Positions 1-13,928 of a stretch of 27,542 nt of DNA are shown piece by piece. How positions within the stretch are numbered: position 1 is the stretch's first letter; each line of letters begins with the position of its first letter. The DNA is taken from the UHGV virus genome UHGV-0088497; one strand, 5' to 3'. The DNA is from a virus. Made by a program: the position numbers and the translations under genes. The notes under the pieces were generated by a model. It was not told the DNA's origin and did not search any database. It worked only from the letters and a program-made list of their open reading frames with translations.

Positions 1-33
1 AGGAAAACATGGTCAGGCAAAAGTGTAGCGGTA

Positions 34-213
34 TTAGGCGCAGCTATTTAGCACCTCATCAATCACATTCAACATATCAGCGAGAATGTAAGCTCTGTTC
101 CCGCCGTTAGAGTACTGGGTATCATGCTGCAGGTGTTCACGTATCTGGTGCAGGCGATCGACTGATACAGGACCGTTCGCCGGGTGGTTAGTTGTCATTG
201 AGCCTTTATTCAT
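34..213 (-). CDS. Hypothetical early-left protein (59 aa)
   Basis: This is the ORF-track frame 34..255. I start it at ATG 213, which has GAGG about 9 nt upstream and overlaps the upstream stop at 206 by 8 nt. No domain recognised. Confidence 0.5.
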   Translation of the reverse strand: MNKGSMTTNHPANGPVSVDRLHQIREHLQHDTQYSNGGNRAYILADMLNVIDEVLNSCA

Positions 214-463
214 TACTGTTGTCCTCGCAGCAGTAGTGGCGTCCTTCTGGGTCATCGGTTACAAATCCACACTCGCTACAGGTAAATTCATCTGGGGGAG
301 ATAAATCATCCTGACGGTTGTTATTACAAAAAGGATTACCATCACCGCCAGGCCACTCTTCAAGTTCGTCTTCACGCTGACAGTTCCGGCATAGGTCATT
401 GCCAGCCCACATATCCTCTTTGCATCGAGGGCAACGGTCTAAATCTTCATCTTTCACTGGCAT
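206..463 (-). CDS. Acidic Cys-rich zinc-ribbon-like protein (about 85 aa)
   Basis: The ORF-track frame 206..475 begins with TTG. ATG 463 or GTG 457 (behind AGGAGG at 470..465) is more plausible. Contains the motifs CPRC, CRNC and CSEC. Confidence 0.55.
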   Translation of the reverse strand: MPVKDEDLDRCPRCKEDMWAGNDLCRNCQREDELEEWPGGDGNPFCNNNRQDDLSPPDEFTCSECGFVTDDPEGRHYCCEDNSNE

Positions 464-570
464 CCCTCCTGGCAATCGTGGTTTTCTGGCTCATCGGCTT
501 TGTAATACCCGCCACAAACAGGGCAGATAACTAGCGGCGTCTCATCGTAATTTGAAGTTCCAGTAATCAT
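454..570 (-). CDS. Small zinc-ribbon-like protein (38 aa), missing from the ORF track
   Basis: Hand translation gives MITGTSNYDETPLVICPVCGGYYKADEPENHDCQEGCQ. Its ATG at 570 overlaps the TGA of the upstream gene (ATGA coupling). It has a CxxC...CxxxC pattern. Confidence 0.4.
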   Translation of the reverse strand: MITGTSNYDETPLVICPVCGGYYKADEPENHDCQEGCQ

Positions 571-821
571 TGTGCTGCTCCCTGTCTGGCTCTATTCAAT
601 AGCTGGTTAAACATCATGGTTAGGCTGTTACTGCACCCAAACGGCATATCGTTAACACGGTATGTTGGAATGCCCTTGCGAACACCTGACTTCACGATCC
701 GGCCTGTGCCATAGAGTTGCGATAATGCGCCAGCGACCGCGGGTGTCTTTTTGTTCATACCTTTGGCGATTTCACCGCTGGTGGTATTCGGATGAGCCTG
801 GAGATATTCAAATACGGTCAT
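567..821 (-). CDS. Small winged-helix DNA-binding protein, FaeA/PapI-like (84 aa)
   Basis: VFEYLQAHPNTTSGEIAKGM...LSQLYGTGRIV...TYRV matches the layout of PapI/FaeA-type wHTH regulators as I remember them. It sits in the ATGA-coupled chain. Confidence 0.6.
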   Translation of the reverse strand: MTVFEYLQAHPNTTSGEIAKGMNKKTPAVAGALSQLYGTGRIVKSGVRKGIPTYRVNDMPFGCSNSLTMMFNQLLNRARQGAAQ

Positions 822-985
822 GGCGTTTTACCTTTACGTTCCTGTTCCAGTTGCACCAGAGACTCTTTTAATGCTGCGAACGTAGCTTCCAGTCTGGTGG
901 CGACTTCGCGCATAAGCGGTGCATGCTTTGGTGGCAATTCAGCAACGGAGGCAAAAGCCTCAGCTACGAGTTCTTTTACCTTCAT
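818..985 (-). CDS. Hypothetical helical protein (55 aa), missing from the ORF track
   Basis: Hand translation gives MKVKELVAEAFASVAELPPKHAPLMREVATRLEATFAALKESLVQLEQERKGKTP. ATG 985 overlaps the TGA of the HD gene, and its own TGA (820..818) overlaps ATG 821 of the next gene. Confidence 0.45.
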   Translation of the reverse strand: MKVKELVAEAFASVAELPPKHAPLMREVATRLEATFAALKESLVQLEQERKGKTP

Positions 986-1521
986 GCGGCGCATTGGCGC
1001 AGCTCCACCAGTTCGTTAAAGCGATTCATGAACAGGCCATAGGCTTGACCAGGGCGGAGAGGGATTACCTGAACGAGATCAGAGCAGGGAATACCTTCGA
1101 GAATTTCCCACTTCGAACCATCATCGATTTCCATATCACGGCGCTCGGTGGCTAACATGGTTAGATCGGCATATTTCACGACAGCAGCTTGTTCAAGTGA
1201 GATACCGAATTTAAAGCGGATAAGACCATCAACATAAGTTTCCATGCGCTGATAGTCAGGCAGCAAGGCTTTGAGCGGGGCTGGAATATCCTGGCAATAT
1301 GCCTCCGCAGCGTCGTGCATCAGCGCTTCAAAGGCGAACTCTGGCGGCACAATCTGGCTTACAAGCACAGAGTGCTGGGCCACACTGTAGAACTCTGGCA
1401 GATGCCCAGCGAATCGACAGATGTTGGAAAGCGCCGTCGCGATATCCTCAACATCGATATCGTCGATTGTGGCGGTCAGGTAGTTAAATTTTTTACCGCA
1501 TAATGTCTGAATGTAGCTCAT
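982..1521 (-). CDS. yfdR: HD-domain 5'-nucleotidase/phosphohydrolase, YfdR-like
   Basis: It carries HD-family motifs (AQHSVLVS, LMHDAAEAYCQD). Its length and sequence closely recall E. coli K-12 CPS-53 prophage YfdR. I moved the start to ATG 1521, which has GGAGAAAACC upstream. Confidence 0.85.
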   Translation of the reverse strand: MSYIQTLCGKKFNYLTATIDDIDVEDIATALSNICRFAGHLPEFYSVAQHSVLVSQIVPPEFAFEALMHDAAEAYCQDIPAPLKALLPDYQRMETYVDGLIRFKFGISLEQAAVVKYADLTMLATERRDMEIDDGSKWEILEGIPCSDLVQVIPLRPGQAYGLFMNRFNELVELRQCAA

Positions 1522-1677
1522 GGTTTTCTCCATATTGGCGCGCTGCACCGCGCAGATTTTGTTTGCACGAATCCCTCGCCAAAAGGCGAATAAAAGTTTG
1601 GGTTTCGTTTCAGTAAATGCCCCATCTATAGGTATTTAGCGCAACGGGTTGCTCCATCGTTATTATGCTGTTGTGTT

Positions 1678-1712
1678 AAATAGCTACCAAGATAGGTAGT
1701 GAGTAGCTATTT
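1678..1712. repeat. Perfect 10-bp inverted repeat AAATAGCTAC-N15-GTAGCTATTT with a nested CTACC/GGTAG repeat
   Basis: Read directly from the sequence. It lies at the junction of the AT-rich membrane-gene module and the early-left operon leader. It could be an operator or an RNA hairpin. Confidence 0.6.
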
Positions 1713-1773
1713 AACTACAGCAATGATTAGAGTAATCTGGATATCCTAATGTCTTTATTTTTAAGGTTTTTTT

Positions 1774-2259
1774 GTGGCTAGTGAAAAAAAATTAAAAATT
1801 CCATTCGATACCAACAAAAACTATTACAGTGGAATTCGTGGTGTTTTGAGCGGTATTGTTTGCTCTATGATCGGTGTTTATATTACCGGGCTATTTAGCG
1901 GAGCTATTAGTGTTGCTCAGATTTTTGAAATGCCAATAGTTATCATCAGTGCTTGGGTCGCTTTGTGTGCTTCTTTGTGGGCGATATCATATAAATTTGA
2001 AGATAGGGTTATATGCACATTTGGTCGTAATTGGGATTGTCCTAGAACAGCGAACTTTTTTTTATTTTTGCTTTACATAATGATAGGTGTCTTTTGTTCA
2101 CTTATATTCGAGGCCTTTCTGAAGGGGGGGGCCTCCCGCTCCTTATATGTTTCAATGGCGGGCTTTTTAGTTTTCTTACGACTTTTTTGTTTCTTCAGCA
2201 TTAAGAACTATGCTCAAATACAAAGCAAATCTGTTGATGAAACTAACCATGAAAAGTAA
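1774..2259 (+). CDS. AT-rich 4-TM membrane protein (161 aa), a moron in the immunity region and candidate superinfection-exclusion factor
   Basis: GTG start with AAGG upstream. Four hydrophobic segments: GVLSGIVCSMIGVYITGLF, PIVIISAWVALCASLWAI, FFLFLLYIMIGVFCSLIF, LYVSMAGFLVFLRLFCFF. It has its own terminator and runs opposite to all neighbouring genes. Confidence 0.7.
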   Translation: MASEKKLKIPFDTNKNYYSGIRGVLSGIVCSMIGVYITGLFSGAISVAQIFEMPIVIISAWVALCASLWAISYKFEDRVICTFGRNWDCPRTANFFLFLLYIMIGVFCSLIFEAFLKGGASRSLYVSMAGFLVFLRLFCFFSIKNYAQIQSKSVDETNHEK

Positions 2260-2294
2260 CCTGTATTAATAGGGTATCCAGATTGTTAAAGAGC

Positions 2295-2318
2295 GAAGCG
2301 TCCGATGGGCGCTTTTTT
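2295..2318 (+). terminator. Rho-independent terminator of the membrane moron
   Basis: Stem AAGCGTCC / GGGCGCTT (one G-U pair) with a short loop, followed by TTTTTT at 2313..2318. Confidence 0.7.
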
Positions 2319-2400
2319 GTTGCCTGCGAATCATCCGGTTATTCATATGCCACCGGCGGCTACTTCGTGGGCGTCCTGCCTGTTCGCTGTTGATGAATGA

Positions 2401-2429
2401 AATCTAACTTAACTTAGCTTTGAGATCAA
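2401..2429 (-). promoter_or_regulatory. Candidate pL promoter (TTGATC-17-TAGATT on the minus strand) overlapping the operator CTAACTTAACTTAG (2404..2417)
   Basis: The 14-bp CTAA-N6-TTAG palindrome has the same form as the two OR sites. The hexamers and the 17-nt spacing were read from the reverse complement. Confidence 0.5.
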
Positions 2430-2483
2430 GAAAAAACACCAAACCATTCTTAGCTTGATGTTAAGAGGAAGGTTAGAGGTGGG

Positions 2484-3110
2484 TTAAAGTTCGTACTGAA
2501 CGCCTTTGACAACTCCGATAATCAGGCAATTACCGTTTATTGAAATGTTTGGATAGCGTGGATTCAAGGGAACTAAGAACTTTTGAGGCCCATCGATGAC
2601 GAGTTTTTTTACAGTAGCCTCGCTTGTCCCATCAAGCCTGGCTACGACTATCTTTCCATTAAATGGCTCTGCATCAGGATCTACTATGACCGTTGCCCCT
2701 TCTGGGATTGTGGGGAGCCCATTAGGGTTTGTCATCGAATCACCTTTGACCTCCAATGCAAAGGAGCTATCACCTATCCTGAGTGATGTTTCTACCCACT
2801 TATCTACTTCACTGAAAACTTCTGCTGCTTTACATTCTGTAAACTGTCCAGCCTGAACCCAAGATATCACCGGAATCCTTCGCATCTTGGTTATCAGATT
2901 CCCTTCGAATTCAGTGCCATAAAGTATGTAATCAATTGATGTGTTGAAATACTTTGCAAGTTTCGCAAGTGACTCACCGCCTGGCACATTAATGTCTTTT
3001 TCCCAATACCCAACCGCCACATCGCTAACACCACAGAACTTACCCAGTTCTTTCTGCGAGGTTTTAGTTATGCGCCTGAGAGCTTTGATGCGCTGACCGA
3101 CAGTTTCCAT
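2484..3110 (-). CDS. cI: cI-type prophage repressor (XRE HTH plus S24 LexA-like autopeptidase)
   Basis: N-terminal HTH (SQKELGKFCGVSDVAVGYWEKD), an Ala-Gly site (VQAGQ), the GDSM serine motif and a downstream KKL lysine. I start it at ATG 3110 (METVGQ); the ORF-track start at 3143 is a TTG. Confidence 0.9.
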   Translation of the reverse strand: METVGQRIKALRRITKTSQKELGKFCGVSDVAVGYWEKDINVPGGESLAKLAKYFNTSIDYILYGTEFEGNLITKMRRIPVISWVQAGQFTECKAAEVFSEVDKWVETSLRIGDSSFALEVKGDSMTNPNGLPTIPEGATVIVDPDAEPFNGKIVVARLDGTSEATVKKLVIDGPQKFLVPLNPRYPNISINGNCLIIGVVKGVQYEL

Positions 3111-3135
3111 TTGAACACCATAAAAAATTAAAAGG

Positions 3136-3198
3136 CTAAGCAATCTTAGTTTTTATTGACCAAAGTTAGATTGGTTATTAATATCTAATCAAACTTAG
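3136..3198 (+). promoter_or_regulatory. OR region with two CTAA-N6-TTAG operators, one ACCAA-N7-TTGGT palindrome and PR
   Basis: Operators CTAAGCAATCTTAG (3136..3149) and CTAATCAAACTTAG (3185..3198). Palindrome ACCAA-N7-TTGGT (3159..3175). PR is TTGACC (3156..3161), a 17-nt spacer and TAATAT (3179..3184). The region lies between divergent cI and cro. Confidence 0.65.
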
Positions 3199-3211
3199 CT
3201 AAGGGGGCATT

Positions 3212-3439
3212 ATGACAACCGATGATATTGAAAACTACTTCGGCAGTACTGAGAAAGTTGCCGAGTTTTTTGGAATCACAAGCGAGGCCGTTTACCAGTG
3301 GCGTAATAGAACTGGTCGCCTAATCCCGAAAGGACGTGCAGCAGAAGCAGCCTATCGGACTGGGGGAAAATTGGTTTTCCATCCCGACCTTTACGAAAAG
3401 CGTAGCGATGCTTCAGTAAAACTCAAACCACAGGAATAA
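3212..3439 (+). CDS. cro: Cro/YdaS-like HTH regulator (75 aa)
   Basis: Divergent from cI, with an AAGGGGG RBS. The motif KVAEFFGITSEAVYQWRNR...IPKGRAAEAAYRTGGKL is typical of the Cro/YdaS family. Confidence 0.75.
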   Translation: MTTDDIENYFGSTEKVAEFFGITSEAVYQWRNRTGRLIPKGRAAEAAYRTGGKLVFHPDLYEKRSDASVKLKPQE

Positions 3440-3449
3440 GGGGGGAGCT

Positions 3450-4001
3450 GTGGGTAACGAACCTATTTGGAAAGTCGAACGTCAGCCAGCCTGGCTGGTG
3501 GCGGCGATAAAAAAAACGATCACCGATCTTCCTGGTGGTTATGCCGAGGCGGCGGAATGGTTGGGCGTGACAGAGAACGCATTGTTCAACCGCCTTCGTG
3601 TTGACGGCGACCAAATCTTCCCGCTGGGCTGGGCAATGGTTTTACAACGTGCTGGTGGTTCAACTCATATTGCTGATGCCGTTGCGCGCCATTCTCAGGG
3701 CGTATTTGTACCGCTGGCAGATGTCGATGATCTGGATAACGCCGATATCAACCAGCGCCTGATGGAGTCCATCGAATGGATAGGCCGTCATTCGAATTTT
3801 GTACGTAAAGCCACGGCTGATGGGGTAATTGACGCAGATGAGCGTGCTCAGATTGAGGAAAACAGCTATCAGGTTATCGCGAAGTTCCAGGAGCACGTAA
3901 CGCTTCTTTATCGAGTTTTTTGTGTCGCTGAAAAGAGTGACGCCCGCGAGTGTGCAGCTCCGGGCGCCTTGGCGAACAACTCTTCGAGTATGGAGAAATA
4001 A
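3450..4001 (+). CDS. cII-like regulatory protein (Phage_CP76-type, 183 aa)
   Basis: It occupies the position after cro. An HTH-like stretch (GGYAEAAEWLGVTENALFNRLR) resembles the CP76/CII family as I remember it. GTG start. Confidence 0.55.
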   Translation: MGNEPIWKVERQPAWLVAAIKKTITDLPGGYAEAAEWLGVTENALFNRLRVDGDQIFPLGWAMVLQRAGGSTHIADAVARHSQGVFVPLADVDDLDNADINQRLMESIEWIGRHSNFVRKATADGVIDADERAQIEENSYQVIAKFQEHVTLLYRVFCVAEKSDARECAAPGALANNSSSMEK

Positions 4002-4173
4002 TCCGCATGAGCAGTTTAACGGCTTTTAACCGTCTACCGCAACTCAGGATAATCCCGGTTTCGGGTACTCCGTTGTTTCGGTATGAACGCAGATTATCAA
4101 CCCGCTGGGTTCCGTGTAACCACAGTAGGGCGGTTTCAATTGTGGGGGTCTACAACCGGAGGGCAAAACGCCT

Positions 4174-4353
4174 GTGCGCGAACTTAACCGAAGGTTCAAA
4201 GACCACCGTGGAGTGCCAGTCCGTGTTATCCGCTGGGAGCCAGAAACACAGCGCGTTATCTATCTGCGTGATGGCTACCCGCACGAATGCTTCAGCCCAC
4301 TTGAGCATTTCAGGCAAAAATTCAGGGAGATAACGGACGATCATGAGCACTAA
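4174..4353 (+). CDS. Hypothetical protein (59 aa), missing from the ORF track
   Basis: Hand translation gives (V)AELNRRFKDHRGVPVRVIRWEPETQRVIYLRDGYPHECFSPLEHFRQKFREITDDHEH. GTG 4174 lies about 10 nt after GGAGGG. The stop overlaps the start of the O-like gene. It looks more protein-like than the overlapping 127-aa and antisense 66-aa track ORFs. Confidence 0.4.
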   Translation: MRELNRRFKDHRGVPVRVIRWEPETQRVIYLRDGYPHECFSPLEHFRQKFREITDDHEH

Positions 4354-5209
4354 ATTAACCGGCTACGTATGGGATGGTTGCGCGGCGTCGGGCATGAAGT
4401 TGTCTAGTGTCGCGATCATGGCTCGACTCGCTGATTTCAGCAGTGATGAGGGCGTATGCTGGCCGTCAATTGAAACTATTGCTCGCCAGCTTGGCGCAGG
4501 CCCGAGCACTATCAGAACGGCAATCGCAAAGCTTGAAAAAGATGGCTGGCTCACGCGTACACAGCGCCGTAATGGTAACCGTAATGCTTCGAACGTGTAC
4601 CGCCTGAATGTGGCGAAACTTCAGGCTGCCGCATTTTCTCAACTGTCAGATTCTGACACATCAAAATCTGACGCATCAAAATTTGACACCTCAAAAACTG
4701 ACCCGTCGAAATCCGGCAAAAACGGCGGTTTTGACCCGTCAGAATCTGGCGGGGATCCGTCAGTAAAATCAAAACAAGATCCACAAGTAACTTTAAAACC
4801 CTCTTGTCCGGTTGCGGCGCAACCCGACCCTGAGGTTGTGATTACTGATCAGGCCAGACAGGTTTTGTCTTACCTGAACCAGACAACTGGTTCACGCTAC
4901 CAGGTATGCAGCACGTCGCTGGAGAACATTCGCGCCCGTCTGCGGGAACAGTTCACTGTTGATGATCTGTGCCTTGTGGTGGATTACAAAAACGCTGATT
5001 GGCGTGATAGCGAGCAGGCTCAATACCTCCGCCCGGCAACTCTGTTTATTCCAAAAAACTTCCCCGGTTACCTGCAAAGCGCGACCAAATGGTCTGCCGC
5101 TGGGCGACCTGAACGCGTTAACGGTAAATGGGCGACTAACTCAGCCAGCCGCGCAAACTTCCAAAATGTTGACTATTCACTGCCAGAAAATTCGGGGTTC
5201 CGCTCTTGA
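4343..5209 (+). CDS. Replication initiator, lambda-O-like (N-terminal wHTH plus conserved phage C-terminal domain)
   Basis: N-terminal HTH (WPSIETIARQLGAGPSTIRTAIAKLEKDGWL). Internal iteron array. The C-terminal block (QVLSYLNQTTGSRY...DDLCLVVDYK...YLRPATLF) resembles the phage conserved C-terminal replication domain. Confidence 0.8.
   Translation: MSTKLTGYVWDGCAASGMKLSSVAIMARLADFSSDEGVCWPSIETIARQLGAGPSTIRTAIAKLEKDGWLTRTQRRNGNRNASNVYRLNVAKLQAAAFSQLSDSDTSKSDASKFDTSKTDPSKSGKNGGFDPSESGGDPSVKSKQDPQVTLKPSCPVAAQPDPEVVITDQARQVLSYLNQTTGSRYQVCSTSLENIRARLREQFTVDDLCLVVDYKNADWRDSEQAQYLRPATLFIPKNFPGYLQSATKWSAAGRPERVNGKWATNSASRANFQNVDYSLPENSGFRS
4652..4760 (+). repeat. Iteron array (candidate ori) inside the O-like gene
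   Basis: Four tandem 15-bp units: TCTGACACATCAAAA, TCTGACGCATCAAAA, TTTGACACCTCAAAA, ACTGACCCGTCGAAA. After a 19-bp gap comes TTTGACCCGTCAGAA and a degenerate copy. The array encodes the SK-rich linker SDTSKSDASKFDTSKTDPSKS. Confidence 0.65.
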
Positions 5210-6525
5210 TGCCAAATAAATATTGCCAGGCGCTGGCAGAACTGCGCAGTAAACCAGCTCACGAATTGAAAGAAGTTGGAGATCAGTGGAGGACACCTGA
5301 TCTGCTTTTCTGGGGGATCAACGCGTTATTTGGCCCATTAGTTCTGGACTTGTTTGCTGACGACGACAACGCGAAATGCCCGGCATGGTACACCGCCGAA
5401 GATAACGCGCTGACCCAGGACTGGTCTGAACGTCTGGCAAAACTGGGTGGTGCAGGTTATGGCAACCCACCGTATAGCCGTTCGCAGTACCACGAGAAAC
5501 AGGCGATCACTGGTATGACGCACATCATGAAGTACGCAGCAGCCCAGCGCGAGAAGGGCGGTCGCTATGTATTCCTGATAAAAGCCGCGCCAAGTGAAAC
5601 GTGGTGGCCGGAAGATGCCGATCACATTGTATTCATTCGCGGGCGCATTGGGTTCGATCTGCCTGTGTGGTTTGTACCTGCTGACGAAAAACAGAAGCCC
5701 ACCAGCGCGTTTTTTGCCGGTGCCATAGCTGTATTCGATAAGTCATGGCGTGGTGAGCGGTTCAGCTATATCAACCGTACCGAACTGGAGGCAAAAGGGC
5801 GGGCGTTTATGACTTTGGCGCAATTTGCTGCCAGCAAGTCTCAACCTGCAACTGCCACACCATCTGTAGCTGACAAGCCAGAAGCAGAGTTGCCACTTAC
5901 CCAGAAAGATATTTTTGATATCAGCGGTGTCGAGGCGTGGGCATGCGTTAGAGCTGCGTTCGGCGATAAAGAAGAATACACATTTAGTGAATCGAAGTTT
6001 GGGCATACCTGGGCGGCGGATTCTGTCGAAGCACCGGAATTCACTCAGGTATCACCATTAACGATCGACAAAGCGAAGCTGCTTATTCGTGAGAGTATTT
6101 TGTTCGGTGTGGATGAGTGGCTGTTGTCGATTGAATTCGATGACGCTGCTGCGCGCCTGGATATGTCGGAACGTATTCGTACTGTTGCCCTTGAAGCATC
6201 TGGTGAATATGGCATGAACAGTACTGATTTCATTGCAGCTATGGGAAGCCTGGATGTTTCCAGTTGGTCCAATATTCGCCAGATCCGCATGCACATCCGT
6301 GAGAAAACTAAACCAGTATCGGATCCGCTTCCCGAGTCCCGTATCTGGCCGCTGGAGGTTGGAATTGTATTCGACCAGGTAGACGGCGCTGACATGCTGG
6401 ATGAATCACAGCAGAACAAGCTGAAAGCCAACATCAATCAACTCTGGCTGGAACGAACGGCCACCAGCGAAATCATTACTGCTGCTTCTGAACTTGTTCG
6501 CAATATGCGGGGAGAGGCCGCGTGA
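5209..6525 (+). CDS. Phage Dam-type N6-adenine DNA methyltransferase fused to an uncharacterised C-terminal domain of about 220 aa
   Basis: The N-terminal third has QWRTPDLLF...LDLFADDDNAKCPAWYT...GYGNPPYS (NPPY catalytic motif), typical of the phage Dam family. I recognise no domain in residues about 215-438. ATG 5209 overlaps the upstream TGA. Confidence 0.8.
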   Translation: MPNKYCQALAELRSKPAHELKEVGDQWRTPDLLFWGINALFGPLVLDLFADDDNAKCPAWYTAEDNALTQDWSERLAKLGGAGYGNPPYSRSQYHEKQAITGMTHIMKYAAAQREKGGRYVFLIKAAPSETWWPEDADHIVFIRGRIGFDLPVWFVPADEKQKPTSAFFAGAIAVFDKSWRGERFSYINRTELEAKGRAFMTLAQFAASKSQPATATPSVADKPEAELPLTQKDIFDISGVEAWACVRAAFGDKEEYTFSESKFGHTWAADSVEAPEFTQVSPLTIDKAKLLIRESILFGVDEWLLSIEFDDAAARLDMSERIRTVALEASGEYGMNSTDFIAAMGSLDVSSWSNIRQIRMHIREKTKPVSDPLPESRIWPLEVGIVFDQVDGADMLDESQQNKLKANINQLWLERTATSEIITAASELVRNMRGEAA

Positions 6526-6968: not shown

Positions 6969-7608
6969 TATTGCGGATCTGGTTCAGAGTAAACACAGTG
7001 ACGTGAAACGCTCGGCTGAGCGTCTTGTTGCTGCGGGAATTTTAACCGCGCCATTGGCGCAGTTCGATTTTGAGCATAACGGTAATGTGTACCAGGAGTA
7101 TCGTTTTAACAAACGCGACTCTCTGGTGATTGTTGCCAGATTATCACCTGAATTTACCGCCGCGGTCGTCGATCGCTGGCAGGAACTGGAAGAAGGACAG
7201 AGTGTCAGTGTTCCCCGCTCATTACCGGAAGCGCTTCGCCTGGCTGCTGATTTAGCCGAGCAGAAAGAGCAACTGACGATCCAGCTGGCAGCCGCGGCGC
7301 CAAAAGTGGAGTTTGTTGATCGTTATTGCTCTGCAAAAGGCTCCATGTCATTCCGGCAGGTAGCCAAATTGCTTAACGCAAAAGAAACTGAGTTTCGTCT
7401 GTTCCTTATTGAACGCAATATCCTGTATCGCCTCGGCGGCACACTTACCCCCATGGCGCAGCACATTTCCGCGGGAAGATTTGAAGTTAAGACGGGAACA
7501 TCGAGCACATCCAATCACGCATTCAGCCAGACGCGTTTCACTGCCAAGGGAGTACGCTGGATTGGTGGTTTGTGGGCTGAACATATTGCAGGGGGGCAGG
7601 CGGCGTGA
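6922..7608 (+). CDS. Rha-family regulator / KilAC-domain antirepressor
   Basis: Start ATG 6922 has GGAG 7 nt upstream. The N-terminus is Rha-like (SSRDIADLVQSKHSDVKRSAERL). The C-terminus is KilAC/ANT-like (VEFVDRY...FRQVAKLL...). Confidence 0.7.
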   Translation: MSQLIVNGVVTMSSRDIADLVQSKHSDVKRSAERLVAAGILTAPLAQFDFEHNGNVYQEYRFNKRDSLVIVARLSPEFTAAVVDRWQELEEGQSVSVPRSLPEALRLAADLAEQKEQLTIQLAAAAPKVEFVDRYCSAKGSMSFRQVAKLLNAKETEFRLFLIERNILYRLGGTLTPMAQHISAGRFEVKTGTSSTSNHAFSQTRFTAKGVRWIGGLWAEHIAGGQAA

Positions 7609-8600
7609 GGGCTTTGTTAACTCCTGAAGTCGCCCATCGCATGGGGATTGTGTTGTTTCGTCCCGGCGCGGAACTGATGCACCTCTTTATGCGTGGTCGC
7701 GTTTTGCTCGAGCCTGAACCAGAAGAAATGGCGTCATTCAGTACAGGAGCTGTTCCCGCCGCCATTCAGCCGCTGGCTGATGATCCGGTAATGCGGCAGG
7801 TCTTCGAGAATGATCGGGTTATTCAGCGTGCCGGTGGGCTTCCTTCCCTTGAGCAATGGTTGAGTACCCGGTTTGAATGCCAGTGGCCACATTCATCGTG
7901 GCACGATAAGAACTTCACAATAATGCGGCACCCACCAGGAAGTATTCACCTGTGCTGGCATTGCGATCACACTTTGTCGGGGCAACATACCGAACAGCTT
8001 GCAGGTATAGCGGCAGGAAACCTGGTATCCTGGATTCTGGAAGTCATTCGGCGTGATTCTGGTTTTCCCGAGTCGCATATCCTGACGCTTCCGGAACTGT
8101 GCTGGTGGATGGTCAGAAACGACCTGGCTGATGTTATTCCGGAAAGCGTTGCGCACAAGGGGCTACGCCTTCCGGATGAGAAGATCCGCTCGGTCATGAG
8201 GGAAAGCGATATTGTACCTTCCGTTTCTGCAACCAGCCTCGTGCAGGAGAAGGCGAAGAAGATCATCACGCTCTCTGTTGATCCGGAGTCTCCGGAATCT
8301 TTCATGCTCAGGCCAAAGCGACGCCGCTGGATAAATGAGACTTACACCCGCTGGGTAAAAACACAACCCTGTGAGTGTTGCCGACGGCCAGCAGATGATC
8401 CGCACCATATCGTAGGGCACGGTATGGGTGGTACAGCAACAAAAGCCCATGACCTCTTCGTGATCCCTCTGTGCAGAGAGTGCCACGACGAGTTACACGC
8501 CGATGTACCGGCATTCGAGCAGAAGCATGGTACGCAGCTTGAGCTGCTACTGCGTTTTATGGATCGGGCGCTGGCGATCGGTGTAATTGCGAAAGCTTAA
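7605..8600 (+). CDS. DUF968/Ref-like HNH-type protein with a long unknown N-terminal region (331 aa)
   Basis: The C-terminal block CECCRRPADDPHHIVGHGMGGTATKAHDLFVIPLCRECHDELH matches the DUF968 / P1 Ref-like metal-binding motif as I remember it. GTG 7605 overlaps the upstream stop. Confidence 0.6.
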   Translation: MRALLTPEVAHRMGIVLFRPGAELMHLFMRGRVLLEPEPEEMASFSTGAVPAAIQPLADDPVMRQVFENDRVIQRAGGLPSLEQWLSTRFECQWPHSSWHDKNFTIMRHPPGSIHLCWHCDHTLSGQHTEQLAGIAAGNLVSWILEVIRRDSGFPESHILTLPELCWWMVRNDLADVIPESVAHKGLRLPDEKIRSVMRESDIVPSVSATSLVQEKAKKIITLSVDPESPESFMLRPKRRRWINETYTRWVKTQPCECCRRPADDPHHIVGHGMGGTATKAHDLFVIPLCRECHDELHADVPAFEQKHGTQLELLLRFMDRALAIGVIAKA

Positions 8601-8617
8601 GTGTATGGAGAAAAGTG

Positions 8618-8983
8618 ATGCGTGATATTCAAATGTTACTTGAAAGATGGGGCGGGTGGGCTGCCAGTGATAGTTCTGGCGTGGACTATTCTCCTATAGC
8701 TGCAGGATTTAAGGGGCTGTTGCCGCAAACAGGTAGATCCCGACCGTCATGTACTGACGATGATGCGCTGATCATCGAAGGTTGCCTGGCGCGATTGAAA
8801 AGCCGGAAACCATATGAGCATTCACTGCTTGTAGCTCACTATCTGTATGGAATATCCAAGAGGAAGATCGCAAAAGTGCGTAAAAAAGATGAGAAATTGA
8901 TACGGATCGAGATACAGATGGCTGAGGGGTTTATTGATGGCTGCCTTTCAATGTTGGATGTAAGGCTTGATATGGATGAATAA
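8618..8983 (+). CDS. Late antiterminator Q (QuuD / phage-21 Q family)
   Basis: MRDIQMLLERWGGWAA...IAAGFKGLL...DDDALIIEGCLARLK closely recalls E. coli DLP12 QuuD. ATG 8618 has GGAG 7 nt upstream. Confidence 0.85.
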   Translation: MRDIQMLLERWGGWAASDSSGVDYSPIAAGFKGLLPQTGRSRPSCTDDDALIIEGCLARLKSRKPYEHSLLVAHYLYGISKRKIAKVRKKDEKLIRIEIQMAEGFIDGCLSMLDVRLDMDE

Positions 8984-8992
8984 CTAATTGTT

Positions 8993-9023
8993 AACATTAT
9001 GCCCCGTGTAGGGGCCTAATGTT
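8993..9023. terminator. 13-bp-stem hairpin between convergent Q and the 4-TM gene (no U-tract)
   Basis: AACATTATGCCCC gtgta GGGGCCTAATGTT with one mismatch. It overlaps the stop codon of the minus-strand gene. Confidence 0.45.
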
Positions 9024-9471
9024 ACAAGTGAGGGAAAATTCTACGCAGCACTAACCAACACCTACCAAATGTGCAAAGTGAAAGGAGCAGCGAAGACAAT
9101 CCTAACAGGAGAAATAAAAAATCAATTGGTTGAGCAAAGACCTTAACATCCTCTGGTAAGAACATAGCGATCAGTGGAAACAAGCAGGCCAAAATCAGCG
9201 TCAACCCTGTTGATAGCAAGCGATTTATCAATGTTGGTAATATATTATTCCTTTTGAGGGCGTTAATGGCCCCATCTTTGTCACTATCTGCGCTACTGAA
9301 TATAGATATAGCGGCGAGAACAAACCCAAAAAGAATTCCTGAAATTGTCGAAAGCACACCTGCTGTAGTTAACACATCAGCATGTTTCATAGGCTTAAAC
9401 AGTTTTGTCGCTGCATAAGTAATCAGAACTAAGAGGACCACTTTCCAAAAAAGAGTTAGAAATTCTCTCAT
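9022..9471 (-). CDS. 4-TM membrane protein (149 aa), RexB-like candidate effector
   Basis: GGGAGG RBS 5 nt upstream. Four hydrophobic helices at about residues 5-25, 34-60, 81-105 and 116-142. Size and topology match lambda RexB (144 aa). LSTISGILFGFVLAAISIF resembles RexB LSSYAGTMIAILIAALTFL as I remember it (unverified). Confidence 0.6.
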   Translation of the reverse strand: MREFLTLFWKVVLLVLITYAATKLFKPMKHADVLTTAGVLSTISGILFGFVLAAISIFSSADSDKDGAINALKRNNILPTLINRLLSTGLTLILACLFPLIAMFLPEDVKVFAQPIDFLFLLLGLSSLLLSLCTFGRCWLVLRRIFPHL

Positions 9472-9489
9472 TTTGTCCTCCCTTTTGCG

Positions 9490-10437
9490 TTACTGGTTTT
9501 TTTTTGCAAGCTCATACTGTGCAAGGTAATTTGCATTATCAATTTTAGCAGATATCATCGCCGTCCTGATATCAGAATCAGAAGGATAGCCGCTTTTTAC
9601 TACTATAGTTTTCGAGCCTATGAGCACTTGATCAAGTAGGCTTTTTGGCGCTGTATCTGATGGTTCTGTTACATCAATTTTCTTGATGTTTAGCCCGCCA
9701 GAGCCTTTGGGGAATAGTTCAAGCAGTTCTTTAATAGCATCAGTAACTGATGATTTAAGATAGTTGAAGCCTGCTCTTTTGGGACGAATGCGACCGCGCA
9801 TGTTAAGTCTCAGGTGTGAACCGCCCATACCAACCACCATATCAATGATGTCATTAGTAAGGTCATTCTTAATCTGATAATTAGCTTTATTGAAATTTCT
9901 TGGCGCTGCGACAGTGAGGTCAAAACTGCGAAGGATGTTCCCATCTTCAAGAAGTTCCTTCATGCTCTCGTGCTTCCAGATAGCCTCGAATGTAACATTT
10001 TTCATTTGTGTCTTGTTGTACAGAATGAAAGATAAATCATTCACTTTGGGGCCTAAATGGTTGAGAGTCATTGCTAGTAAATCTGTTTCAAAGTAGTAAA
10101 TAAAATATGTCCGTTCTACTACTGAATCTTTATCGCTAAGCGGTATCGTTCGCTCGCTTCCTGTGGTGCCATCCTCGATAAAAGGTAAGAGACAATCACG
10201 CCTCCACGAGACATACCCAAAATAACTCTGCTGCTTATCATCCTTTTCAAGAATGACAAGTTTTAAACCGCGGTTTTGGGTTTCTGCTGTCACCACTAAA
10301 GGGAATGTAACCGGAGTCGTGTTTGTCATTTGCTCGAATGCAAGTTTCGCTGTAGACAGACCGTCTTTTTTACTTCCATTTCCAGTGAAAAAGCCAACTC
10401 TTACGCGACGAGTTTTCTTCTTATCTTCTGTAGTCAT
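9490..10437 (-). CDS. Soluble 315-aa protein, RexA-like candidate sensor
   Basis: ATG 10437; the track start at 10443 is a TTG. It lies 18 bp upstream of the 4-TM gene on the same strand and is AT-rich. The block FETDLLAMTLNHLGPKVNDLSFIL resembles lambda RexA VEGDTIGFARTVFGPTTSDLTDFL as I remember it (unverified). Confidence 0.55.
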   Translation of the reverse strand: MTTEDKKKTRRVRVGFFTGNGSKKDGLSTAKLAFEQMTNTTPVTFPLVVTAETQNRGLKLVILEKDDKQQSYFGYVSWRRDCLLPFIEDGTTGSERTIPLSDKDSVVERTYFIYYFETDLLAMTLNHLGPKVNDLSFILYNKTQMKNVTFEAIWKHESMKELLEDGNILRSFDLTVAAPRNFNKANYQIKNDLTNDIIDMVVGMGGSHLRLNMRGRIRPKRAGFNYLKSSVTDAIKELLELFPKGSGGLNIKKIDVTEPSDTAPKSLLDQVLIGSKTIVVKSGYPSDSDIRTAMISAKIDNANYLAQYELAKKNQ

Positions 10438-10675
10438 TATCAATCCGATGAGAATTTCTGATAAACGGACGAAAAATACTATAAATAATTGAGAAGATCA
10501 TTAGCGCGGTCCGCAAAAAGTGATGTAACGTGTTAAGAGTGGTTACTTGGTCACATTGCTTAATCATCAAATTCAGCTTCTGAGTTTTGTTTTAACGATG
10601 CTTGATTGTGCGACTTATCTCTCTGAAACTTATCTTCTTTTCCTTGACTATGAATTTTCTATCTAAGGAGGTTCT

Positions 10676-10924
10676 ATGTTGGGAGTGTGTTCTTGTGGTG
10701 GTAGGCTTGATGAGTCGCAGTATTCCACCGATAGCCTAGGTAATACGTTCAAATCTTGTCCAAGATGTACGCAGATTTCCGGGCATCACGTTTTCTATCT
10801 TATTGAGGAGTTTGGCGAGAGGGATATGGGGGATGGCAGAGTTATAGTGCAACCATATTGCCCATCGTGCAGAAACTACCAAGAAAGATCATTAGTTCCT
10901 GCGTTTGAGTGCAGTGGTTCATGA
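10676..10924 (+). CDS. Zinc-ribbon protein (82 aa), function unknown
   Basis: Strong RBS (AAGGAGG, 5 nt, ATG). Motifs CSCGG, CPRC and CPSC. Followed by a canonical terminator. Divergent from the RexAB-like operon. Confidence 0.65.
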   Translation: MLGVCSCGGRLDESQYSTDSLGNTFKSCPRCTQISGHHVFYLIEEFGERDMGDGRVIVQPYCPSCRNYQERSLVPAFECSGS

Positions 10925-10943
10925 TCACAACATTCAATATAAG

Positions 10944-10965
10944 ACCACCTTCGGGTGGTTTTTTT
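10944..10965 (+). terminator. Rho-independent terminator
   Basis: ACCACC ttcg GGTGGT followed by TTTTTT. Confidence 0.8.
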
Positions 10966-11088
10966 ATGACAAATCAGACATGCGCGGCGCGTAAAGGCGC
11001 TGGTGGTCGCAGAATGGAATTCTTCTCTTGCTGGTGAAGCCAACCAGAGTTATCTGTATGTCACTCTAATTGTTTAAGGGTAAAAGGC

Positions 11089-11280
11089 ATGCTAAATCAG
11101 CAAGATATGACAGAAACCGCGAAGGCTGTTTTCAATGAGTTAAGCGATAAACCAGCATCGGTTGGGGAGATTGCACAGAATACCCACCTCAGCCGCGAAC
11201 GTTGCCAACTCATACTTACGCAATTGGTGATGGCGGGATTATCTGACTACCAGTTCGGATGTTATAAGCGTTTCCAGTGA
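11089..11280 (+). CDS. Small winged-helix protein (63 aa), same family as the 567..821 product
   Basis: VFNELSDKPASVGEIAQNTHLSRERCQLILTQLVMAGL aligns by eye with VFEYLQAHPNTTSGEIAKGMNKKTPAVAGALSQLYGTG of the 567..821 product. Confidence 0.55.
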   Translation: MLNQQDMTETAKAVFNELSDKPASVGEIAQNTHLSRERCQLILTQLVMAGLSDYQFGCYKRFQ

Positions 11281-11410
11281 TATGTTTTTTTGCACTATGT
11301 GAACTGCATCAACAGTTTAGTTTTTTCTTATTTCTGGCTTAAAAATAGTTTTTGACATAACTCTTTAGCTATTAAGATTTTTTACCTTATCAACTTGATA
11401 GAGGTGAAAA

Positions 11411-11743
11411 ATGAGTGTTGAAAATTATGAAATTGCTTTAAATGATGTTGACCCAACTAACCTGGGTGCGGTTAAAGACTTATTGGAGACACACTCCCAT
11501 CTTTTCAATGACTATTTTCTAGCCGGTTATGGCGGTGATGCCCGATACTCCGTTATTGATGGCTCATTTGAAGTTATCGGTATTGGAGATGGTTTTTTTG
11601 AGTATGAGGTTGGGATTGATTTTTTTGCTGGTTGCTCAGATATGAACGATACCCACGAAGACTCTGGGATACTTGAATATGAAGTTAGAGATGGAAGTAT
11701 TCACATTGAAGTGGATGAAGCTGTCTGGAGAGTAGACAATTAA
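11411..11743 (+). CDS. Highly acidic 110-aa protein, function unknown (possible DNA mimic or anti-defence factor)
   Basis: GAGGTG RBS. By my count it has 14 Asp and 11 Glu against 1 Lys and 3 Arg. No recognisable domain. Confidence 0.6.
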   Translation: MSVENYEIALNDVDPTNLGAVKDLLETHSHLFNDYFLAGYGGDARYSVIDGSFEVIGIGDGFFEYEVGIDFFAGCSDMNDTHEDSGILEYEVRDGSIHIEVDEAVWRVDN

Positions 11744-11933
11744 TTCCCGCTTACTGATCCTAATCGCGCCGCTATAAATGGTTTGGCGGCTTTCTGCTGT
11801 GGAAATGGGCGGCTGGTGGGTGTTAGCGCACCCAGTCAGCCATCAGCTCATGCTTTCAGGTCACAAGCTAACCAAGGCCCACTGCTTTAGCGCAAAAGCA
11901 ACGTGAGCCTATCAGAGTTACGCTTACTGATCT

Positions 11934-12986
11934 ATGAAAAATACTGTAAAAATAAACAGGGTTGAGTTAATCAACGCTGATAGCCTGCATTACGTCGCCA
12001 CCCTCCCGGATAACTCTATTGATCTGATTGTTACGGATCCTCCGTACTTCAAAGTGAAGCCTAACGGCTGGGACAACCAATGGAAGGGGGACGAGGACTA
12101 CTTACGCTGGCTTGATAGCTGCCTGGCTGAGTATGCTCGCGTTCTTAAACCTGCTGGCAGCATCTACCTGTTTTGCGGTCACCGACTGGCCTCAGACATA
12201 GAGATTATGATGCGTACCCGGTTCAAAGTTTTGAATCACATCATTTGGGCAAAACCATCGGGCCGCTGGAATGGATGTAACAAAGAAAGCCTGCGTGCGT
12301 ACTTTCCATCTACGGAACGGATTTTGTTTGCTGAGCACTATCTTGGGCCGTACACAGGTAAAGAGGATGTTTACGAAAGGAAAAGCACAGAGCTAAAGCA
12401 GCACATTATGACGCCGCTGATTGATTACTTCCGTAATGCCCGTGAATCACTGGGAGTCAGCTCGAAAGAAATAGCTGAGGCAACCGGAAAGAAAAACATG
12501 GCGTCACACTGGTTTGGTGCAAGCCAATGGCAACTACCAAATGAAGTGGACTATAGAAAATTGCAGGAACTGTTCACGCGGATCGCTATCGATAAGCACA
12601 TTCAGCAGAAGCTTGAACATCCTCACCACCAGCTGGTAGCCACCTATCAGTCATTAAACCGCAAGTATTCAGAATTGCTGGAGGAATACAAAACCCTCCG
12701 GCGCTGCTTCTCTGTTTCCGCTTTTGTTCCGTATACCGACGTATGGACGCATAAGCCTGTTCAGTTTTATCCAGGCAAACATCCATGCGAAAAACCTGCC
12801 GACATGCTGAAGCAGATCATTAGCGCCAGCAGCAGACCGGGGGATATCGTTGCCGATTTCTTTATGGGCTCTGGTTCAACTGTGAAAGCTGCAATAGAAC
12901 TTGGTCGTCGGGCGATCGGCGTAGAACTGGAAACCGACAGGTTTATTCAGACCACCGAAGAGGTGGAAAAACTCAACAAAACATAA
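11934..12986 (+). CDS. Orphan beta-class N6-adenine/N4-cytosine DNA methyltransferase
   Basis: Motif IV DPPY (LIVTDPPYF) is near the N-terminus and motif I FxGxG (ADFFMGSGST) near the C-terminus. No restriction endonuclease partner is evident. Confidence 0.85.
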   Translation: MKNTVKINRVELINADSLHYVATLPDNSIDLIVTDPPYFKVKPNGWDNQWKGDEDYLRWLDSCLAEYARVLKPAGSIYLFCGHRLASDIEIMMRTRFKVLNHIIWAKPSGRWNGCNKESLRAYFPSTERILFAEHYLGPYTGKEDVYERKSTELKQHIMTPLIDYFRNARESLGVSSKEIAEATGKKNMASHWFGASQWQLPNEVDYRKLQELFTRIAIDKHIQQKLEHPHHQLVATYQSLNRKYSELLEEYKTLRRCFSVSAFVPYTDVWTHKPVQFYPGKHPCEKPADMLKQIISASSRPGDIVADFFMGSGSTVKAAIELGRRAIGVELETDRFIQTTEEVEKLNKT

Positions 12987-13129
12987 CGATCATCACGCTC
13001 CCTGTTGCTGTGGTGATCACCATTTTCAGGCACCGGGAATCATCCTTACTTTTAGTTGAACAAAAGAGCCCGGTTGCCTGATCCCCTCCAATCACACACA
13101 GCGCCATCCGAAAAATCGGAGGTGAGGCT

Positions 13130-13408
13130 ATGACCAGAATGAGCACCATTTACAGCAGACTTTCATATGGATCAGGAACCACGCTTGCCGGCTGCGGTGT
13201 ATCAGCGAAGGCATATGCCGAAACAGCCAAAACAGCAAAAGAGGTGTCCTGGATGTTGGCCGACAGAATTGCAGGGTTAAGCCTGAGCGACTGGGCAATT
13301 ATTGTCGGTATCGCATGCACAGTTATCACCTGTGCAGTGAACTGGTATTTCCGCTGGAAAGAACGGGAGGATCGGCGCAATGGCTATGCCACCAAAGCTG
13401 AAGAATAA
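13130..13408 (+). CDS. Class II holin, phage-21 S (pinholin)-like, with an MTRM dual-start motif
   Basis: GGAGGTGAGG RBS. LSLSDWAIIVGIACTVITCAVNWYFRWKEREDRR parallels the S21 C-terminal half. Met1 and Met4 are separated by Arg. Confidence 0.75.
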   Translation: MTRMSTIYSRLSYGSGTTLAGCGVSAKAYAETAKTAKEVSWMLADRIAGLSLSDWAIIVGIACTVITCAVNWYFRWKEREDRRNGYATKAEE

Positions 13409-13928
13409 ACTGAGCGCAGCGGTCGTTGGTTTGATTCTTGCGGGGGCTTCCGCGCCCGTGATTCTCGATCAGTTTCTGGATGAGAAAGAGGGTAACAGCC
13501 TGACAGCATATCGCGACGGCGGCGGAATCTGGACTATTTGCCGTGGCGCCACGATGGTTGATGGTAAGCCAGTCGTTCAGGGGATGAAACTGACGCAAGC
13601 TAAGTGTGAACAGGTCAATGCCATTGAGCGTAACAAGGCGCTGGCGTGGGTTGAGCGAAATATCAGGGTACCGCTGAGCGAACCACAGAAAGCCGGGATC
13701 GCATCTTTCTGCCCATATAACATAGGCCCCGGAAAATGTTTCCCGTCCACGTTCTATAAGCGAATGAACGCCGGCGACACAAAAGGCGCGTGTGAAGCTA
13801 TTCGCTGGTGGATTAAAGACGGTGGCCGCGATTGTCGCCTGACCAAAGGCCAGAAAAATGGCTGTTATGGGCAGGTAGAACGACGAGATCAGGAAAGCGC
13901 GCTGACGTGCTGGGGGATAGACCAGTGA
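13380..13928 (+). CDS. SAR endolysin (lysozyme, phage-21 R-like)
   Basis: N-terminal weakly hydrophobic Gly/Ala-rich signal-anchor ([19 protein letters not shown]), then the catalytic E-8-D-5-T pattern ([16 protein letters not shown]). Confidence 0.85.

Follow-up and report, generated by a model that had tools for sequence, protein, structure and literature searches.

Textbooks and structural papers treat the Q antiterminator gene and the late promoter PR' with its Q-utilisation site (qut) as one adjacent module. The virus genome UHGV-0088497 (27,542 nucleotides; this whole stretch is called the window below) raises the question of where late transcription starts when Q is followed by something else: Q stops at position 8983, a convergent gene ends 38 bp later, and the holin, the first lysis gene of the late operon, starts at 13130. 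A first-pass annotation had pointed to this gap and proposed either a late start further downstream or a Q-dependent antisense silencing of the RexAB-like exclusion operon that lies in it. We here describe a conserved core of approximately 70 bp at 10493-10563 on the plus strand, recognised by sequence conservation and predicted to be PR' with qut, and conclude that Q very probably acts in trans on this split late promoter, 1.5 kb downstream of its own gene.

The Q gene (8615-8983, plus strand) is an intact open reading frame (ORF) for 122 aa, whose product aligns over residues 2-119 with positions 1-118 of the 118 in the Pfam profile PF06530 (E = 1.7e-53), the Q21 family according to Yin et al. 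(PMC9388147). It also matches phrog_79 (E = 8.6e-46) and, distantly, the Q21 structure chains 6P18/6JNX (E = 2.2e-5, residues 8-88). Between its stop and the holin (13130-13408, plus strand; PF16080, E = 1.9e-11, also PF04971), which is followed by the lysozyme (13380-13928), lie 4146 bp, in agreement with the 4.1 kb of mosaic DNA noted in the first-pass annotation: separate segments match separate prophages, and the G+C content is 0.39-0.43 over 9001-11500 against 0.52-0.55 in flanking phage genes. ORF calls and folding confirmed the position of the Q stop and of the convergent 149-aa ORF, which ends at 9022 inside a hairpin. The earlier failure to recognise a PR'/qut directly after Q was also borne out, given that a sigma-70 promoter scan and a comparison among relatives found no promoter-like or conserved sequence directly 3' of the Q stop; the DNA past this stop is entirely different between phages with near-identical Q genes. 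Rfam, at gathering thresholds, gave no match in the window. All four intergenic stretches that had been named as places for a later start exist (10444-10675, 10966-11088, 11281-11410 and 12987-13129), and it is the first of them that holds the core.

The core was identified by comparison with other phages. Its sequence at 10494-10563 matches 76 phage records, and these matches were cross-tabulated with tblastn hits of Q. In relatives without cargo (the Stx2 phage L003, L032, APSE-7, and Kosakonia and Klebsiella phages) the core sits downstream of a homologous Q, 13-37 bp from its stop, and in Stx2a phages, phage 1720a-02 and APSE phages it sits approximately 19-26 bp from the stop. This is the canonical position of PR', and the core can therefore be read as a Q-linked PR' module. 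In SfIV, phage cdtI and WY517-2 the core is found 1.5-2.5 kb after Q, and the motif is present in 81 of the 86 loci whose Q is at least 74% identical to that of the window, adjoining Q in 2 and lying 833-2732 bp away in 79. In the window itself the pattern has one match where none is expected by chance, and PR' does not directly follow Q: the box within the core starts 1523 bp after the Q stop, and the intervening DNA is cargo. The closest relative, L007, matches the window at 8400-8979 and 10499-12868 (94% nucleotide identity) and at nothing between, and carries another, three-gene cassette in that place. The same Q and the same downstream DNA around a different cassette fix the borders of a cargo slot, with its genes on the minus strand, at 8984-10498, and place the core in the late module and not in the cargo. 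WY517-2 (E. coli), with a 75%-identical Q, has the same two convergent genes, then a 296-bp spacer and then the holin, and its homology to the window runs approximately 120 bp past the start of the cargo, to 10563. In this way comparison shows where the predicted core lies, how it is conserved, that it is linked to Q and where the slot ends.

Flanks of the window (DUF968, and 11784-13499 with 96% identity) recur in the prophage of E. coli Nissle, but its Q, of 229 aa, is unrelated. This bears on whether the late promoter could instead lie directly before the holin (12987-13129) or in one of the stretches 10966-11088 and 11281-11410, with all 4.1 kb outside the late operon. These stretches are truly intergenic, and 11281-11410 is AT-rich and contains TTGACA. 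However, a prophage with an unrelated Q shares not only 11784-13499 but also 10929-11281, 11282-11783 is an insertion absent from close relatives, a scan found no promoter-like site in 12987-13129, and the Q-linked core is in none of the three stretches. We consider a start in any of them extremely unlikely; among the regions proposed for a late start further downstream, the comparison favours 10444-10675.

The palindromic box also links the core to Q. With more distant Qs the downstream half of the core is kept and another palindrome occupies the position of the box: CGCGTACGCA in Stx1a phages, SfII, a Klebsiella phage and mEp460, and TACGTACGTA in DLP12. The three box versions were sought in IMG/VR and in a set with one genome for each species, and the nearest upstream Q was typed at each locus. 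In 256 loci with both elements (related and partly redundant IMG/VR contigs, not independent events), the boxes were matched to three Q clades in 63/63 cases for GCGGTCCGCA, 95/95 for CGCGTACGCA and 98/98 for TACGTACGTA, with no mismatch, as is expected for a protein and its predicted recognition site. Several cassette types, including that of the window, occur with both of two box versions, A and B. Because cassettes are shared across clades while Q and box stay matched, cassettes appear to be exchanged while Q and box are kept together, and such swaps without a mismatched Q/box pair imply selection on a split cis/trans pair. All three boxes are palindromic (GCGG-T-CCGC at 10506-10515 in the window, GCGTACGC and ACGTACGT); the variants other than that of the window lie at approximately 4198-4207 in the DLP12 locus (L087) and approximately 2998-3007 in L088, L089, L090 and L092. 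The QBE of Q21, in contrast, is a direct repeat, a hint that Qs of this branch bind in another way.

The same comparison weighs on a different interpretation of the core, in which it is a constitutive promoter with a leader RNA or attenuator belonging to the lysis module, the box is the operator of another regulator, and Q acts elsewhere. The Q clades are only 42-56% identical and yet have the downstream half of the core in common, which could thus travel with the lysis module, and the evidence linking Q to the box is comparative. However, each box variant keeps to its Q clade in every locus, whatever the cargo and the lysis genes, the core abuts Q in cargo-free relatives, and its layout parallels PR' of phage 21 element by element. 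Between Q and the holin the comparison brought up no second conserved candidate: the Q-linked core is in no other stretch, and the remaining intergenic stretches are either insertions or shared with a prophage whose Q is unrelated. This makes the interpretation improbable, although somewhat less so than a start near the holin, and a split PR'/qut remains our preferred reading.

The anatomy of this predicted PR' was read from a profile of 60 unique copies, numbered from a predicted start at A10538 (+1). It consists of an A-tract position, a Q-clade-specific box, a -10 hexamer, a start region and a conserved initially transcribed region. The A-tract at -45 to -41 is 82-97% A across the profile and occupies the place where an UP element would lie. 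The box GCGGTCCGCA (10506-10515, -32 to -23, plus strand) is at least 92% conserved at every position and is the candidate Q-binding element (QBE); an A/T-only stretch follows at -22 to -19. The -10 hexamer TAACGT (TAnnnT; 10526-10531, plus strand) has T at -12 in 98% of copies, A at -11 in 100% and T at -7 in 100%, with freely varying middle positions (-10 to -8). Next to it, the near-invariant GTTAAGAGTGGT from -6 to +6 (10532-10543, plus strand; 85-100% conserved) contains the predicted start, and further conserved positions reach A+26. Within this start region a -10-like TAAGAG/AAGAGT followed by GG spans -4 to +5 and may be a sigma-dependent pause element (SDPE), an assignment kept tentative because this element and the predicted start overlap. 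Of 69 unique core copies, 63 have a hairpin (-6 kcal/mol or lower) with a T-run, ending at a median of +54, and the stem sequences differ widely among them; a hairpin and T-run with such varied stems is the signature of a putative PR'-tR' unit. TTGAGA/TTGAAA as a -35, CAWWWW as a -10 and TGnTAAGAG as an extended -10 were rejected as elements of the core, given that the 60-sequence profile shows no conservation at the positions they require.

Two further observations concern the surroundings of the start. A possible 5-bp hairpin, GUGGU...GCCAC, lies at 10539-10554 (+2 to +17), where relatives have either T+7/C+14 or C+7/A+14; the covariation is partial, with a few exceptions, and may reflect an RNA element or shared ancestry. 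The cargo operon and the predicted PR' stand back to back (10444-10500). On the minus strand a possible -10 of the cargo, TATAGT (10483-10478), lies only approximately 25 bp from the box, and the two divergent promoters could influence each other.

Several points count against the reading of the core as a Q-responsive PR'. It has no recognisable -35, and the generic sigma-70 scan missed the site for this reason. The window copy is atypical, with a weak proximal terminator and a degenerate A-tract. The pause-like element, at -4 to +3, is nearer to the -10 than those of lambda (+1 to +6) or phage 21 (+2 to +8), and the candidate box is a single palindrome where Q21 has a direct-repeat QBE. The Q/box matches come, as noted, from related loci, and a literature search found no measurement of a start, a pause or Q dependence for any member of the group.

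These differences are best judged against phage 21, whose Q21/PR'21 cassette has been described (PMC6606751; bioRxiv 10.1101/651190) and whose layout we took from the annotated record OL657228. Its Q belongs to the same family, and the predicted elements of the window follow in the same order: QBE, -10, a TAAG-containing -10-like element, a terminator within approximately 50 nt, and the lysis genes. The box of the window starts 28 nt upstream of TAAG, which is the distance from QBEu to the SDPE in phage 21. There, a -35 TTGACA lies 7 nt after the Q stop, the SDPE TAAGCTG spans +2 to +8, the terminator spans +3 to +50, and the QBE is a direct repeat, ATTGAGCA and AATGAGCA, between -35 and -10, whereas the window has a single 10-bp palindrome and no -35. 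The -10-like element is 13 nt from the -10 in phage 21 and 8-9 nt in the window, Q is 162 aa long there and 122 aa here, and the window has 1.5 kb of inverted cargo between Q and PR'.

Lambda is similar to the predicted arrangement in its constitutive late promoter, its proximal -10-like pause element followed by Gs, its terminated leader and its Q-dependent read-through into S-R-Rz. The leader reads AACGATGGGTTAATTCG in lambda and AAGAGTGGTTACTTCG in most relatives of the window, and the lambda AACGATGGG, like the TAAGCTG of phage 21, resembles TAAGAG/AAGAGT. In contrast, the Q family of lambda is unrelated, and its PR', with a proper -35, begins 78 bp downstream of Q. The literature on Stx PR' was set aside as a guide, as it concerns another Q family.

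A parallel for a split arrangement is the DLP12 prophage of E. coli K-12 (quuD - nmpC - essD). QuuD, which is of the same Q subfamily, is 50% identical to the Q of the window, and a convergent porin gene lies between it and a copy of the core (NC_000913.3, approximately 577,198-577,255) upstream of essD. Core and terminator are complete between nmpC and essD (approximately 577,198-577,270), with a predicted start at approximately 577,229. The differences are the box, TACGTACGTA, and the cargo, which is a porin and not an exclusion-like operon. The literature on DLP12 that we found places no PR' downstream of nmpC. The lc porin of PA-2 presumably stands in an arrangement akin to the DLP12 split.

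Downstream of the core, the window departs from its relatives in the leader. At the position of their tR' it has a weak hairpin with a T-run (10569-10593, +32 to +56, plus strand; -5.1 to -5.4 kcal/mol, with the hairpin proper at 10569-10587), which is not better than shuffles; the L007 version is stronger (-6.9/-8.5) and changed in both arms. The first strong intrinsic terminator after the core lies at 10941-10966 (+404 to +429, plus strand; -13.8 kcal/mol, z -4.1, followed by U7), is positionally homologous to the terminator after the core in L003 and is likely the effective tR' of this phage; a generic terminator scan listed it on the minus strand only. In L003 a terminator and a homologue of window 10945 onward adjoin the core, a direct junction that identifies approximately 10564-10940 as an insertion in the PR' leader. 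The insertion, shared only with L007, contains ORF82 (10676-10924, plus strand), which encodes an 82-aa, Cys-rich, zinc-ribbon-like protein (CxC...CxxC...CxxC; phrog_7682, E = 3.8e-20) behind a strong Shine-Dalgarno sequence, AAGGAGG, and which gave no tblastn match in the phage genome collection. PR' is constitutive in lambda and Stx phages (PMC7547250); if this also holds here, ORF82 would be transcribed in the lysogen without Q, because it lies between the predicted PR' and the first strong terminator.

Further on, a 63-aa winged-helix protein (11089-11280, plus strand; DprA_WH, E = 8e-5; phrog_331, E = 7.6e-33) is encoded in common with the Nissle prophage. It is followed by an inserted module (11282-11783, plus strand) with ORF110 (110 aa, 11411-11743; phrog_13663, E = 4.1e-31), which is absent from Nissle and L011, where window 11281 is joined directly to 11784. 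A 130-bp AT-rich stretch with TTGACA precedes ORF110 and could be its own promoter. The N6/N4 DNA methyltransferase (11934-12986, plus strand; PF01555, E = 3.5e-44; MTase_II, E = 4.6e-142) has no restriction partner in the region, and the same gene is found in the same place before the lysis genes in the Nissle, cdtI and mEp460 prophages, which have differing Q types. A scan found no strong terminator between 10966 and the holin.

From this layout we infer the following course of late transcription. The promoter, which has a good -10 (TAACGT) but lacks a -35, would let sigma-70 RNA polymerase start constitutively in the vicinity of A10538. From the box GCGGTCCGCA, bound Q would load onto polymerase held at the -10-like TAAGAG/AAGAGT-GG around the start, and the modified polymerase would then pass both the weak hairpin (10569-10593) and the strong terminator (10941-10966). 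Read-through would cross 2.6 kb of cargo (ORF82, the winged-helix gene, ORF110 and the methyltransferase) into the holin, the lysozyme and the structural genes. These four cargo genes would thus lie inside the predicted late operon and the RexAB-like cargo operon outside it, presumably expressed from its own promoter in the lysogen. Because this operon is upstream of PR' and divergent from it, Q-modified polymerase should never cross it. The Q-dependent antisense silencing suggested in the first-pass annotation is accordingly not supported by the geometry, with the cargo (9022-10443) upstream of the predicted start at approximately 10538.

Antisense silencing by Q would need another promoter, with PR'/qut overlapping the end of Q or the 38-bp spacer, from which Q-modified polymerase would run through the RexAB-like operon and silence it during lytic growth. 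The convergent geometry suits this idea, as does the lack of a U-run on the plus strand after the hairpin at 8988-9027. There is also a precedent in the 'noncontiguous operon' taiEcA/atiEcA of phi80, an inverted immune gene in a lambdoid late region, where taiEcA was placed inside the Q-controlled late operon and expression of Q lowered TaiEcA (PMC11364771). However, the anatomy is another one: in phi80 the inverted gene is downstream of a PR' annotated directly after a lambda-type Q, whereas in the window the inverted cargo precedes the predicted PR' and would not be part of the Q-dependent unit. The sequence after Q is moreover specific to the cassette, with nothing shared among phages with the same Q and no conserved motif, and the Q-clade-specific element lies downstream of the operon. 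We give such a promoter at the end of Q hardly any credence, on a par with a start near the holin.

With the cargo upstream of the split PR', antisense transcription of it is possible only from early transcripts that pass the hairpin at 8988-9027. On induction, early transcription could run past Q and this hairpin, cover the cargo in antisense and couple its shut-off to the lytic switch without Q, which would complement a split PR' and not exclude it. The hairpin lies over the stop codon of the 149-aa gene, in its 3' arm, and has 16 pairs in three runs, with -21.2 kcal/mol on the plus strand and -19.3 on the minus strand (z approximately -4 on both; none of 200 shuffles reached this stability). 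At this position homologous cassettes also have a hairpin, with different stem sequences, and that of the window probably marks the 3' end or the terminator of the cargo operon. The missing U-run on the plus strand and the place of Q as the last gene of a long co-directional early operon speak for read-through, whereas the stability of the hairpin and the lack of a visible N-like antiterminator in the window speak against it, as do the many other cassettes that start with canonical two-way terminators and thereby suggest insulation as a general design. We regard this coupling as possible but doubtful.

The cassette of the window consists of two genes on the minus strand. The larger (9490-10443) encodes a RexA-like protein of 315/317 aa, whose homologues are annotated DUF6731 and include a 100% identical protein of Citrobacter freundii. 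The gene 18 bp downstream of it (9022-9471) encodes a 149-aa membrane protein (phrog_8552, E = 1.6e-43) of RexB-like topology, with four predicted transmembrane (TM) segments (4-22, 39-57, 85-103 and 118-136) at positions similar to those in lambda RexB, and with no Pfam or PADLOC hit. Membership in the RexA and RexB families found no support: there was no Pfam hit at E <= 0.01, PADLOC returned only PDC-M67A (E = 0.003) and neither RexA nor RexB, hhalign against lambda RexA gave a probability of 0.4%, and Foldseek gave no match supporting Rex likeness. The label 'RexAB-like' from the first-pass annotation is fair for the architecture, with a four-TM partner directly downstream, and probably also fits the fold, but family membership is not established by these sequence searches. 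Lambda RexA-RexB also differs in place, given that the cassette of the window is in the slot between Q and PR' and not in the immunity region, and in lacking sequence or profile similarity to it.

This type of cassette is present in 27 loci and is one of many. A distance of 500 bp or more (0.5-3.8 kb) separates Q from the core in 247 of the 256 loci, and in the other 9 the two are adjacent. The slot spans from the Q stop to approximately -40 of the core, and the 247 loci hold many unrelated cassettes between its conserved borders, with 59 protein clusters and approximately 43 cassette types. Of the 378 ORFs in the slot with 90 aa or more, 362 lie on the opposite strand. Almost every cassette type opens with its own strong hairpin directly after the Q stop, many of them shaped as two-way terminators (A-run, GC stem, T-run). 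Known anti-phage systems are among the contents, as in a defence hotspot with varied cassettes at one bounded position. They include Kiwa (KwaA, E = 1.6e-82; KwaB, E = 5e-144), a TIR-TM cassette in mEp390 (E = 1.6e-57), the PADLOC systems PDC-S20 with a KAP NTPase (E = 2.5e-168) and PDC-S42, and PDC-M53A/B in SfII; other cassettes encode an HNH effector-like protein (PADLOC), an NYN nuclease (Pfam/PADLOC) and an OLD/ATPase-Toprim-like protein (PADLOC). The NmpC/Lc-type porin fills the slot in 82 of the 98 loci of the QuuD clade; it has no family hit and matches nmpC of DLP12.

Most of the frequent cassettes that were sampled had no PADLOC match (L119, L128, L169, L218, L227, L194 and others), many cassettes matched nothing at all, and such cassettes are candidates for undescribed defence or lysogenic-conversion genes. 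Examples encode proteins of 177+310 aa, 427 aa and 404+391 aa, and a 272-aa membrane protein on the plus strand; a further slot cassette encodes 1050 aa. In Stx1a-converting phages such as Stx1_14040 (L088, LC567819.1; locus 455-3515) three unannotated convergent genes (220, 130 and 350 aa) lie between Q and the core and gave no Pfam or PADLOC match, and the core is approximately 490 bp upstream of stx1A. With the core past these genes, the predicted late promoter driving stx1 is not adjacent to Q. Hotspots of P2-like phages and P4-like satellites (PMC9122126) resemble the slot in their fixed position, conserved borders and many unrelated anti-phage cassettes; they are in another phage group and at another position, and the slot is bordered by a regulatory gene and its predicted cis target, with cargo that is almost always inverted. 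HepS of Gifsy-1 was rejected as a case of the same slot, as it lies at another genome position.

Elsewhere in the window, a 161-aa ORF with several TM segments (1774-2259, plus strand) lies in a low-G+C patch (0.38-0.40) and adjoins a CI-like repressor gene (2484-3143, minus strand). Its place in the immunity region, where rexAB is found in lambda, suggests a second site for cargo. A 439-aa ORF of the early operon (5206-6525) is methyltransferase-like by eye in its N-terminal part, and related prophages have a phage N-6-adenine-methyltransferase at this position. A search of 1-6000 and 7605-13928 revealed no gene for a restriction enzyme.

None of the components is new in itself: antiterminators of the Q21 family, sigma-70 late promoters whose leader is terminated and morons close to Q have all been described. 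The arrangement can be seen in the genomes of DLP12, SfII, SfIV, cdtI and Stx1a phages; a late promoter at the split position is annotated in none of the relatives' records examined, and our literature search found no description of the split between Q and PR', of the box variants or of the slot as a defence hotspot. Here, we find that in three clades of the Q21 family, which include DLP12, Stx1a-converting phages and Shigella SfII and SfIV, Q and the predicted PR' are usually 0.5-3.8 kb apart and yet matched. For annotation, the late promoter, including that driving stx1 in Stx1a phages, should hence be sought past the inverted cargo and not after Q. For the window itself, the predicted promoter would settle which cargo is expressed late and which is not. 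The palindromic candidate QBE and the pause-like element over the start provide testable contrasts with Q21. For the discovery of defence systems, the slot offers sharp borders and approximately 43 cassette types, most of them without a PADLOC match.

More tentatively, the gap between Q and qut may serve enterobacterial lambdoid phages as an insulated hotspot dedicated to the integration of defence genes that are expressed in the lysogen, and its borders (the Q stop and the Q-specific box) could help in mining for new defence systems. Its cargo may be expressed in the lysogen and yet be opposed by convergent early transcription on induction, which would avoid self-immunity without Q, and the Qs of this Q21-family branch may bind one palindromic site and load at a pause element overlapping the start, unlike Q21, Q-lambda and Q82.

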